IMG/VR virus record: IMGVR_UViG_3300003430_000799
Direction: 5' to 3' (one strand)
DNA from: a virus
DNA: 64,000 bases
A model generated the notes under the pieces. It did no database searches and was not told the DNA's origin. It was given only the letters and a program-made list of their open reading frames with translations. The position numbers and the translations under genes are program-made. Every line of letters begins with the position of its first letter. Positions within the stretch are counted from its first letter, which is position 1. Positions 40,207 to 58,035 of this stretch are shown here, piece by piece.

Positions 40207-40221
40207 ATCATTTTATTTTTG

Positions 40222-40298
40222 TAGTCCTGACAGGATTCGAACCTGTAAACTTCCCCTTCACTTAAGGAGGGGTCACGTGTGCCTTCCGCCACAGGACT
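40222..40298 (-). ncRNA. tRNA-like element 3 (near tRNA size; atypical anticodon arm, possibly Leu-UAA-like)
   Basis: Same acceptor and T-arm; CCCCT/AGGGG stem around CCTTAAGTGA. Confidence 0.65.
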
Positions 40299-54662: not shown

Positions 54663-56168
54663 TTAACCTTTCATTACTTTTTTAATAATACCCCTAAAAT
54701 AGTTTTCGTTTACATTGTCCCCTTTCTCGGCATTAATTCTGTCTTTTAGAATTTGAACAAACTCATCTTTTATTTCTTTAATAAAATCAGTTGTTTTGTA
54801 AGGACCAAAACCACCACCTAATGCTGATGTTTGGAAATTAGTAATACATTTGTGTCCGCCACTATTGTTCTTGATTACATCATAAGCAGTTGTATAAATA
54901 GAATCTAATACAGCCAATTCAAATTCACTTAATTCAACATAAGGTTTACTCATTGTTTTACTAACAATTTTTTTCCATTCTTCTAATCCTCTTTCATAAT
55001 CAGGATATTTCTTTGATAAAAAGTTTTCAAACTTTCTTGGTATTTCATTATACCCTTTTATACTATTACCATAAAATGCTACTAGGTCTTTTGCCGTAAA
55101 TCCAACACTCTCACCAGGTACGAATTTTTTACTAGTCTCAGCAACTTTTTTTAATCTATTTGCAGTAATTTTAATTTGTTCCAATTCACTCTTTCTTCCT
55201 TCAAGAATGCCTCTATTTATTTCCCCCAAATCAATTCCTTTTAGTCCTCGTTGTTCCTTAAAAGGATTACAAGAAACTTGTAAAAGTCCAACAGAACCCC
55301 AAGTAATAACTTGAAAATCAGCATCAGGATATAATTTAAAACTCACATATCTATCATATGAACCAGGTTTTATCATACTTCCACCACCATCTTTAATAAT
55401 GATGCCATCTTCATATGATTGTTTACCATAACCTCTCATCTGTTCAATATACTTCTCCCTATTCATCTGTAAATCTTCAACACCTGACCAACCTTCTTCT
55501 TTCATAATTTGTTTTATCTTGTTGAGAATACTAATCAATGAAGGCTCACACTCTAAAACTAATCTTTCTAAAAATCCTTTTTTGTTCTTAAATGCTAATA
55601 ATAATTTGTTGGTAACTAATCCCATCAACATTTTATTTTTTTCTACAGGTAAACCTTTATCAAGATTAAAGATATAATTGTTAACATCATCAATTGAAAT
55701 TCCCATAACCCTAAAGTTGGCCGAATCCACAGTTGAAATTAATTTAATATCTCCTGATGGAAACAAATCTTTTGGTGATAATATACCTGATATTGTTTCA
55801 ACATTAGACCTCGCACTTTTGAAACTTGTTGACGTATCACCCTCAACACCTGATTGTGAATCGTGGTGGTCTGTGTGAATCAAAAACATTGGTTTTCCGT
55901 GAGCAAAGTCAACCAACACAGGCATAACTCCACCACTTGCTTCGGGTTTCTTTATTGCCCATTCTTGGTCACCATATTGGATGACTTCAGCATCAACTAC
56001 TTTGATACCATTATCTTCCAAGTATTTTTTCATTCCTAATGCAGATGTAACTCCATCCAGTCAAAGGTCCTGATGAAAGTAGACCTTCGCTTTTTTGTAG
56101 CGAAGAGCAAGAGAATTAATATCTCTTATTCCACTTTCAATCAGGACCATTTTGTGTGATTTTTTCAT
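54663..56168 (-). CDS. DHH-superfamily phosphoesterase, interrupted by an in-frame TGA (56061-56063) within motif I
   Basis: From ATG 56168: ...VYFHQDL*LDGVTSALGMKKYLE...VLVDF...HTDHHD...VDSA...GGH; the ORF-track start at 56033 lacks motif I. Confidence 0.75.
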
Positions 56169-56236
56169 TTATTGTTTTTTTATTAATAAATATTGAGTTT
56201 TTTATAATATAAAATGTTGGGTTAATTATTTTTAAT

Positions 56237-57160
56237 TTACATCACCAATAATTTCAAAGCGTCAATTGGGTCAACTGATTTAACCATTGATGATAGAGGT
56301 GATGATGTTTGAGGTGGAGTAAATGTTGGTAGTTCAGATTTCATTGGTAATTCACTACCCATAGAACTTAATTGTTGTCCTTGGGGTGTTGATTCAAATT
56401 CGGCCATTTTATCAGCTAAGTCAGGAACTTTTTTGATTAATTCTTCTGGTGGTCCAGAAAAATTACCCAAACCTAGTGAATCTAATAATCCTAAATAAAA
56501 TTTTGTATTATTTGTTAACTTTCTAACAGCTTGTCTACCTAATGGTTTAAATATTAAACCACCTTTACCTGCTTTTACAAATAAATCAACCCATGTCTTT
56601 ACAGTTTCAACTAAACCTTTACCTAACCAAGGAAACTTACCAACACTTTTTTCTAATACCTCAATTAGTTTTACTCCCCATGATGGTGCCTTTTCAATCA
56701 TTTTAGCAACAGGACCTCCAAGATTTTTTGCTGCTTCAGCTATCTTAACGGCATCTTTAGCCAAAACAGCTCCTTTAAATAATTCAGCTCCTTTCCCACC
56801 AAGTTTTAAAACAGAAACAACTGGTGCTGCAATTAAATCACCAAAAATAGGTAATGCTCCAATCCAAGATAAAATAGCATATAATTTATCACCTTGTCTC
56901 CAATAATCAAATCCATTAACCAAATCAATCGCCGAACCAATACCAGGTATTAATCCAGCCCAATCCAAAACAGTGTTATACCATTTAGCTTCGTTTATTG
57001 GAATTTTCACATTAGGATTTAATAATTTAAACATTTCAATTATTATCAACTTGTCATCTTTGGATAATCTATCCCATTTTTCATTAAGAATTTTTATTCT
57101 TTCTTGTTGATAAATTATGTTGATTTTTGTCCTAAACTCTTTTTCAGTTAAGATTTCCAT
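56237..57160 (-). CDS. Protein with pre-toxin-TG-like hydrophobic helical domain
   Basis: LDWAGLIPGIGSAIDLVNG..Y..QGD..YAILSWIGALPIFGD. Confidence 0.6.
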   Translation of the reverse strand: MEILTEKEFRTKINIIYQQERIKILNEKWDRLSKDDKLIIIEMFKLLNPNVKIPINEAKWYNTVLDWAGLIPGIGSAIDLVNGFDYWRQGDKLYAILSWIGALPIFGDLIAAPVVSVLKLGGKGAELFKGAVLAKDAVKIAEAAKNLGGPVAKMIEKAPSWGVKLIEVLEKSVGKFPWLGKGLVETVKTWVDLFVKAGKGGLIFKPLGRQAVRKLTNNTKFYLGLLDSLGLGNFSGPPEELIKKVPDLADKMAEFESTPQGQQLSSMGSELPMKSELPTFTPPQTSSPLSSMVKSVDPIDALKLLVM

Positions 57161-57201: not shown

Positions 57202-58035
57202 CTAATTTGACCCTTCTTTCATATTTTTAAAAATATGTGATATCACATCTACAGTCCATCCATTCCCAAGTAATTTAAACCTTTCGGTGTTTGAGACTCC
57301 CCTTGTATAATTTAATGGTACTGTTTGTAATAGTTCACAATCTTGTGGTGTATATTTGTATATCTGACCCAATTCATTTTTACAAAAAGATGAAACCTGT
57401 CCTTTATACATTGATGCCGTTAAACAAGATGCCTTGTCTCTATATGACTTAACAACATCCTTTCTTGTTCCCCTACCATAGAATGGTAAATCTAAATAGT
57501 TTGGATATTTGTCCTTAAAGTCTGGAGTGATAACATCACAAATATTTAATCCCAAATCTTTTGGTTGTGTTATATTTGGAATATTTGTCCAATACAACCT
57601 TGGTCTATTTTGTGCTGAAACTAATCTACTATTAATCTTAATTGGTTTCACACCAAGATGTTCAGTGATTACATCTTGCCATTCTTCTCTCATTACAACA
57701 TTCTCCAATAAAAAATACTTTGGATTTGTTTCTTTTAATAGTCTAACATACTCAAAGAATAATTTACTCCTTGGGTCATCGAAATTCAATTGTTTCCCTA
57801 CCTTTGAGAATCCTTGGCAAGGTGACCCACCTATAAGAAGGTCGATTGGTGGTAAATCACTTCCTTTAATTTCCGTTATATCCCCCAATTGAATTGTGTT
57901 GGGATAATTTTGTTGTGTAACCTTAATTGAACTTTTATCAATCTCGGATGCAAAATACTTATCATATTTTATGCCAATTCTATTTAGGGCAATTTGACCA
58001 CAACTTAACCCATCAAACAAACTTAATACATTCAT
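57202..58035 (-). CDS. C5 cytosine DNA methyltransferase
   Basis: VLSLFDG, GGSPCQGFS, LLENV, QNRPRLYW, LGNGWT. Confidence 0.93.
   Translation of the reverse strand: MNVLSLFDGLSCGQIALNRIGIKYDKYFASEIDKSSIKVTQQNYPNTIQLGDITEIKGSDLPPIDLLIGGSPCQGFSKVGKQLNFDDPRSKLFFEYVRLLKETNPKYFLLENVVMREEWQDVITEHLGVKPIKINSRLVSAQNRPRLYWTNIPNITQPKDLGLNICDVITPDFKDKYPNYLDLPFYGRGTRKDVVKSYRDKASCLTASMYKGQVSSFCKNELGQIYKYTPQDCELLQTVPLNYTRGVSNTERFKLLGNGWTVDVISHIFKNMKEGSN

Follow-up and report, generated by a model that had tools for sequence, protein, structure and literature searches.

A probable short translational bypass in a phage DHH phosphoesterase gene, apparently part of a homing-endonuclease-type cassette

To our knowledge, efficient programmed bypassing in bacteria and phages is documented essentially only for gene 60 of phage T4 and its homologues. 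The MobA homing-endonuclease element is the carrier of gene 60-type cassettes (Manning & Atkins preprint, 10.1101/2022.08.31.505936), and gene 60 bypassing has been proposed to be driven forward by pairing of the mRNA as it exits the ribosome (10.1101/2024.12.09.627546). According to a 2016 review of recoding, shorter counterparts of gene 60 bypassing had long been expected, and synthetic stop-hops, in which matched codons flank a stop codon, work in Escherichia coli, no natural in-frame case being known at that time (PMC5009743). Our literature search for short-gap natural stop-hops found nothing after this review. In the present work, we describe a candidate site of this kind in a 64,000-nucleotide stretch of DNA (IMG/VR virus record IMGVR_UViG_3300003430_000799; hereafter, the window) that belongs to an uncultured freshwater jumbo phage. 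On the minus strand of the window, a gene for a DHH/DHHA1-like phosphoesterase is interrupted within its motif I by the sequence CTT-TGA-CTG. We propose, with a probability of about 0.8, that this gene and its interrupted relatives are expressed by a programmed short translational bypass (a stop-hop) from CTT over the stop codon to CTN, a reading based on comparative sequence analysis.

Comparison of this site with the T4 gene 60 and MobA cassettes revealed four common features: (i) a stop codon lies directly after the take-off codon, (ii) the take-off and landing codons are readable by the same tRNA (here, CTT with CTG, CTT or CTA), (iii) the cassette combines a free-standing, putatively HNH-type gene, a replacement N-terminal coding segment and the gap, and (iv) the distribution among relatives is patchy and recombination-like. 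Other components differ. The gap is 3-8 nt here (a hop of 6-11 nt), in contrast to 50 nt in T4 gene 60 and 20-50 nt in its homologues; the codons are leucine CUU/CUN rather than glycine GGA; and instead of a take-off stem-loop in the gap there is a 17-bp helix that encloses about 46 nt and ends at the take-off codon. The host gene encodes a DHH phosphoesterase rather than a topoisomerase, and the putative nuclease belongs to a different family, one without a Pfam match. The very short gap, the leucine codons and the long-range 5' helix distinguish the site from the known bypass borne by a homing cassette.

Three other systems are comparable in part. As in the synthetic E. coli stop-hops (Weiss et al. 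1987, as described in PMC5009743), nine nucleotides of the form CUU-stop-CUN would yield one amino acid; unlike those constructs, the present case is natural, occurs in many phages, is linked to a covarying helix and has sister variants with non-triplet gaps. The +1 frameshift site of prfB, encoding release factor 2 (RF2), has the same heptamer, CUU UGA C, with purines resembling a Shine-Dalgarno (SD) sequence upstream and a P-site tRNA-Leu on CUU facing UGA. Unlike in prfB, a +1 shift here ends after nine codons, the downstream open reading frame (ORF) lies in frame 0 in the window and in frame +2 in relatives, and the relatives also use TAA and TAG. The mitochondrial 'byp' elements of Magnusiomyces capitatus (cited in PMC5009743) are likewise short blocks inserted into coding genes and skipped by the ribosome; however, they depend on an unused sense codon in the A site and on relaxed mitochondrial decoding with little mRNA context, whereas the present site combines a stop codon with strictly matched codons and a specific helix.

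The interrupted gene of the window consists of two ORFs on the minus strand. ORF1 (56168-56064) comprises 35 codons, from ATG 56168-56166 through CAT CAG GAC CTT, and is homologous to residues 1-35 of the uninterrupted 499-aa homologues; it codes for the N-terminal strand plus the first half of DHH motif I (...VYFHQDL). Its GAC codon (56069-56067) is followed by the take-off codon CTT (Leu35; 56066-56064), by the in-frame stop TGA (56063-56061), which would serve as the slow A-site codon and constitutes the whole 3-nt gap of this genome, by the landing codon CTG (Leu; 56060-56058) and by GAT GGA (56057-56052), with decoding predicted to resume at GAT 56057. ORF2 (56057-54663) encodes the rest of the phosphoesterase: it starts with DGVTSALG..., includes the DHH motif (55871-55863) and the GGH motif (54860-54852), and continues without a break from the TGA to the stop codon TAA 54665-54663. 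Gene callers report just 456 aa from ATG 56033 (56033..54663), in frame with ORF1, whereas the predicted hop product has 499 aa; relative to uninterrupted homologues, the window gene has exactly six extra bases. The initial annotation of this DNA had described a CTT-TGA-CTG interruption in frame with the 456-aa ORF, and its coordinates were confirmed on the minus strand, the lower bound it had given, 56058, being the last base of the landing CTG.

Two explanations were rejected. An assembly artefact is contradicted by a contig from an independent DNA run that matches 54724-56081 without difference and by many independent assemblies with the same insert. Global or stop-specific recoding (genetic code 4 or 25, selenocysteine, or a suppressor tRNA) was rejected because TGA closes 14 of the 46 long ORFs in the window (TAA closes 27 and TAG 5), making it a normal stop there, and because TAA and TAG are found at the same site in relatives; the view of the initial annotation that there is no global recoding therefore holds. 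The GC content of the window is about 29%. A protein identical to the window product is also recorded on a 295-kb contig, and weak DNA matches of the window were to uncultured phages of 630-640 kb. Metatranscriptome contigs from two runs are identical to 55703-56006 and to the upstream region 56156-582; none of them spans 56058-56066, and these data are thus uninformative on removal of the gap from RNA or on expression across the junction.

Interrupted relatives were gathered by homology and DNA-pattern searches of metagenomes, where most matches to the degenerate patterns were due to chance. The resulting set of 67 interrupted homologous loci (36 unique) comes from independent metagenomes and contains 12 sequence variants of the site. 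About 70 further loci from IMG/VR are uninterrupted and read FHQDLDG, which is the plain sequence expected without the insert; the uninterrupted homologue in LR745206, for example, reads IYFHKDLDGVTSALAMK. The uninterrupted proteins that are 94-96% identical to the window product have 493-499 aa. The take-off codon is CTT in all 67 interrupted loci, including those found through protein homology alone, and is followed by TGA, TAA or TAG, after which 0, 2 or 5 more bases precede the landing codon. Landing is on CTT, CTG or CTA throughout the 12 variants, never on TTR, and in each of them the landing codon is the first CTN triplet in any frame past the take-off codon. It is always followed by GAY GG, and removal of the gap restores DLDG.

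The hops implied by these variants are 6, 8 or 11 nt long. The 6-nt class includes CTT-TGA-CTG, as found in the window, CTT-TGA-CTT, CTT-TAA-CTT and CTT-TAG-CTT; the 8-nt class includes CTT-TGACG followed by CTA or CTG; and the 11-nt class includes CTT-TGACGAAA followed by CTT or CTA, CTT-TGACGGCA-CTA, CTT-TGACGGGT-CTT, CTT-TGAGGAAA-CTT and CTT-TGAGGGAA-CTT. The 8- and 11-nt classes change the reading frame, whereas the 6-nt hop of the window is in frame. The occurrence of three stop codons together with frame-changing gaps means that a single event of read-through or codon reassignment cannot explain the family. The leucine at this motif position is encoded by TTR in 32 of 37 uninterrupted alleles, and TTR is also by far the preferred leucine codon in the window; pattern searches for TTA or TTG as take-off codons gave 17 matches, none of them homologous. 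As a separate observation, one uninterrupted allele (L071) has an in-frame TGA followed by ATG (IND*MKRY) about 50 nt upstream of its motif-I site (L071:2976), at a position where INDLKKRY is found in the near-identical L070; a substitution, an error or a stop-start split could account for it.

The segment upstream of the gap is predicted to be highly structured. For 56168-56055 (114 nt), RNAfold gave -43.3 kcal/mol (z = -7.4), and none of 200 shuffled sequences was as stable. The window fold is a three-way junction, in which a long helix (56148-56130 with 56083-56066) encloses two inner hairpins (56128-56108 and 56106-56084, together occupying 56128-56084 on the minus strand) that are present in both the minimum free energy (MFE) and the centroid folds. 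RNAalifold, run on 29-33 distinct interrupted sequences, gave an independent prediction of a 17-bp helix between a 5' arm, GTCCTGAT-T-GAAAGTGGA (56147-56130, minus strand), and a 3' arm, TCTACTTTCATCAGGAC (56083-56067, minus strand), the latter also being paired in the window fold, covering the V/I-Y-F-H-Q-D codons and ending at the base before the take-off codon. In this alignment, 97.5% of the helix cells are paired, versus 35-43% in slid controls, and the covariation score was reached by none of 500 shuffles. Three pairs have changed on both sides (G-C/A-U, C-G/U-A and A-U/G-C), the 3'-arm base being a synonymous third-codon position in each of them.

The two parts of the helix have different distributions. 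The inner 9 bp are largely due to the conserved ESG and YF codons, and uninterrupted alleles have them as well. Of 29 interrupted sequences, 27 have all of the outer 8 bp (8/8), versus 2-6 of 8 pairable positions in 37 uninterrupted ones (Fisher p = 4e-19, not corrected for phylogeny), and the mean MFE is -35 kcal/mol for interrupted versus -11.6 kcal/mol for uninterrupted sequences. The inner hairpins, scored in a fixed register across relatives, have 67% and 51% of their cells paired, and other subfamilies have different hairpins. No Rfam family matches the site. The multibranch stem proposed in the initial annotation thus stands as far as the long helix is concerned, which covaries, and both hairpins do appear in the window fold; the hairpins are conserved only within subfamilies. 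We infer that the helix stimulates hopping.

The coding sequences on both sides of the gap are under constraint. Between the landing codon and the first Met of ORF2, eight codons (DGVT[ST]A[LI][GA]) have a ratio of nonsynonymous to synonymous differences (pN/pS) of 0.17 at a pS of 0.71, and 5 of the 67 interrupted loci have no ATG at that Met; purifying selection on these codons and the loci without ATG rule out simple internal initiation. The upstream 25 codons have a pN/pS of 0.31 among interrupted alleles. However, uninterrupted homologues show the same conservation of the upstream peptide, which is therefore uninformative on a nascent-peptide signal. An in-frame upstream start was found in 44 of 45 unique interrupted alleles, and the downstream ORF has no further stop in 43 of the 45 (full-length in 31, open up to the locus end in 12).

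A nonsense codon in the gene body of an interrupted allele was observed in only one lineage, a group of six identical loci (L092, L100, L106, L114, L115 and L214; site at L092:1244-1356), where TAA replaces the invariant Ser of the RSN motif. Of the interrupted lineages, only this one is without the outer 8 bp of the stem. It resembles a pseudogene and, as judged from these alleles, it ties stem loss to gene loss and shows what decay looks like in these data.

The product of the hop is, according to structural modelling, a phosphoesterase of the DHH/DHHA1 fold, as the initial annotation had suggested. An AlphaFold2 model was made from an uninterrupted homologue 96% identical to the window product (predicted local distance difference test score, pLDDT, 77.7), and its top Foldseek matches are all DHH/DHHA1 enzymes, namely PggH, GdpP, RecJ and NrnA (E-values from 1e-4 to 1e-2). 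Across 46 homologues, H32, D34 and D36 are conserved in at least 90%, and D85, D98-H99-H100, D146 and G435-G436-H437 are invariant; the window product has the DxD motif only if the hop occurs. The Pfam match to PF01368 (E = 0.028, 15 bits) is below the cut-off of 28.1, a few homologues have a precomputed PF01368 match, and no sequence match was found in PDB. Two 653-aa DHH homologues (P0039 and P0048) contain in addition Pfam domains of sigma-70 (ECF) region 2 and region 4 and are fusions with sigma-factor-like modules.

The data point to the site being the bypass part of a homing-endonuclease-type cassette, since an HNH-like ORF of about 298 aa lies directly upstream, its stop codon abutting the ATG of the gene, in 24 of 65 interrupted and 0 of 67 uninterrupted loci, and since the window retains a 30-nt remnant of it. 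This remnant (56198-56169, minus strand) comprises the last nine codons and the stop (TQYLLIKKQ*), a block common to the loci L082 and L096, which have the putative homing endonuclease gene, and to L112, which lacks it; homology of the window to L082 begins at 56201. The last ~30 nt of the HNH-like ORF are kept by other nuclease-less loci as well, and the TATTTAT motif upstream of the window gene falls within this remnant of the deleted gene. Apart from this remnant, the window has no copy of the HNH-like gene. Among interrupted loci, 41 of 65 have no nuclease gene, yet have the stem, the gap and both ORFs intact.

The mobility of the cassette is suggested by several comparisons. In the gene-body tree, interrupted and uninterrupted alleles are interleaved, with at least 5-7 changes, and divergence is far lower in the cassette than in the gene bodies (pS of 0-0.3 versus 0.45-0.77). 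L022 differs from its body relative L018 by a 927-nt insertion of the HNH-like ORF, and its cassette-like sequence stops at the gap, where the right-hand cassette junction is located. The uninterrupted L002, which is among the closest relatives of the window, is syntenic with it and 91% identical over 5.3 kb, with sharply different first ~45 codons. The HNH-like gene may thus have been inserted just upstream, bringing with it a replacement gene start, the stem and the gap, the last of which would probably destroy the target of the putative nuclease in the conserved motif-I DNA; and in the window genome the nuclease gene would later have been deleted, the stem and gap staying behind. Regulated production of the phosphoesterase, as put forward in the initial annotation, finds no support, and the data point instead to a selfish HNH-type homing cassette with a gap that the ribosome must tolerate.

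The HNH-like ORF has invariant H242, D244, H245, N267 and N276 (H-x-D-H...N...N) and several Cys pairs. Its best structural matches are HNH nucleases, all weak (an HNH nicking endonuclease with Z 4.5, the next with Z 3.7). No match was found in Pfam or among PDB sequences, including by PDB profile search, and Foldseek gave no match for the model of the whole protein. The ORF matches phrog_5104, to which no function is assigned in PHROG, and none of its ~70 close relatives is annotated with a nuclease function. Members of this ~298-aa family with Cys-pair zinc-finger-like motifs are found, for example, at L004:1957-2852, L022:1965-2852, L088:3645-4553 and L226:3959-4831; this may be an undescribed family of HNH homing endonucleases.

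The neighbouring genes of the window were also compared. Between a C5 DNA methyltransferase gene and the DHH gene there is a 307-aa ORF (56237-57160, minus strand). As a candidate for the nuclease it was rejected: it has no family match, is present beside the uninterrupted L002 and is missing from the interrupted L112 and L091. Because it is absent from the otherwise syntenic L112, L091 and L113, this ORF is a separate indel. C5 cytosine methyltransferase genes upstream of the DHH gene (57202-58035, minus strand, in the window; also in L091 and L113) occur as one to three tandem diverged copies.

The proposed mechanism of expression is as follows. Ribosomes would start at ATG 56168, translate 35 codons and pause when peptidyl-tRNA-Leu is paired with CUU in the P site and UGA occupies the A site, the 3' arm of the 17-bp helix being inside the ribosome at this moment. 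The tRNA would then unpair, the mRNA would slip by 6 nt, and the same tRNA would re-pair with CUG, so that decoding would resume at GAU and give a 499-aa protein with the sequence ...FHQDL-DGVTS... and an intact DxD; the predicted tryptic peptide across the junction is VYFHQDLDGVTSALGMK. Most likely, the helix re-zips behind the ribosome and pulls the mRNA forward, by analogy with the exit-pairing model of gene 60 bypassing. A stronger version, in which re-zipping drives the whole 6-, 8- and 11-nt series as a mechanical pull that lasts until the first matching CUN reaches the P site, is tentative, and we consider its chances to be somewhat below even.

A bypass is the most economical explanation because of the covariation, the codon logic shared by 12 variants, the persistence of the site after nuclease loss and the stem-less pseudogene lineage. 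The initial annotation had proposed that tRNA-Leu hops from CTT to CTG, with Leu-stop-Leu and a covarying stem in relatives as the alternative to plain DLDG. The comparison came out in favour of the hop: the 67 interrupted loci show that the insert is not unique to this genome, the stem has compensatory changes, and the variants extend the pattern to all three stop codons and to non-triplet gaps of the 8- and 11-nt classes.

Among other explanations, the one that survives best, although we regard it as unlikely, is a dead allele spread by a selfish homing cassette, in which the DHH gene is inactivated by the gap and yields no full-length protein. This would agree with a cassette much younger than the gene bodies, with the dispensability of the gene in the L092 lineage and with RNA contigs that do not span the junction. 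However, a dead allele would not be expected to show compensatory stem changes or to keep the take-off, stop and landing logic over 12 variants at a cassette divergence of up to ~15%. The 41 of 65 loci that lost the nuclease have no drive left and still keep the stem, the gap and intact ORFs; the only lineage with a nonsense codon in the body is the one that lost the stem; and the landing codon stays CTN without drifting to the preferred TTR.

Conventional recoding is improbable to a greater degree. It would involve read-through in the 6-nt class, adding two residues, and a -1 or +2 frameshift at CTT_T in the 8- and 11-nt classes, adding three or four residues. The identity of CUU UGA C with the prfB shift heptamer, the SD-like AGGA just upstream and the absence of stop codons from the connecting frame of each gap are compatible with such events; nevertheless, two different mechanisms would be required at one homologous site, read-through would be needed equally on TGA, TAA and TAG, and CUU is unable to re-pair in the -1 frame (CCU or UCU); a prfB-like +1 shift in the window gives a dead-end product of 44 aa. 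Moreover, 2-4 variable residues would be placed between the catalytic Asp residues of a motif that reads DLDG in every uninterrupted homologue, and the gap bases vary without coding constraint.

Very little weight can be given to removal of the 6-11 nt from RNA, by editing or by cutting and rejoining beside the helix, followed by conventional translation. A strong conserved helix does abut the gap, and no RNA contig crosses the site; however, this process would need neither matched leucine codons nor an adjoining stop, both of which are invariant, the site has no Rfam match, and we know of no mechanism in bacteria or phages that excises 3-8 nt. Finally, a split gene, in which the 35-aa peptide acts together with a separate protein started at ATG 56033 or only the truncated protein is used, can practically be dismissed, since, although this ATG opens the 456-aa ORF given by gene callers, purifying selection acts strongly on the eight codons before it (DGVTSALG, half of motif I), this ATG is missing from 5 of 67 loci, the corresponding Met is also conserved as an internal residue of uninterrupted homologues, and CTT and CTA are not start codons.

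Several observations weigh against the bypass. The gap and the stem are linked on one cassette, and their co-occurrence thus partly reflects descent rather than independent evidence of function; since the cassette is younger than the bodies, conservation of the bodies largely predates its arrival and is weak evidence by itself. As the L092 lineage shows, the DHH gene can be dispensed with, and the nuclease assignment depends on a motif and a weak structural match. The sole tRNA gene in the window, for tRNA-Leu(UAA) (40221-40298, minus strand), fits the dominant TTA codon of the phage, not the CTN codons of the hop. The synthetic stop-hops made by Weiss in 1987 reportedly had an efficiency of only about 1%. 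As for the host, the clue consists of just four homologues on short contigs of metagenome-assembled genomes from unrelated taxa, which are probably mis-binned phage DNA.

Its signal of 110 nt, its gap of 3-8 nt, the twelve natural variants, the compensatory changes in the stem and a lineage that serves as a natural loss-of-stem control make the site a minimal system for the study of bypassing, one relevant to how the message is moved by mRNA structure behind the ribosome. This case also indicates that gene callers shorten such genes (to 456 instead of 499 aa) and that insertion of a selfish nuclease into the DNA of a catalytic motif need not kill the gene. If pulling by the helix is the correct explanation, the family would offer a compact natural setting in which to test whether pairing of the exiting mRNA drives bypassing, and homing elements would routinely use short bypassing to sit harmlessly in catalytic motifs.

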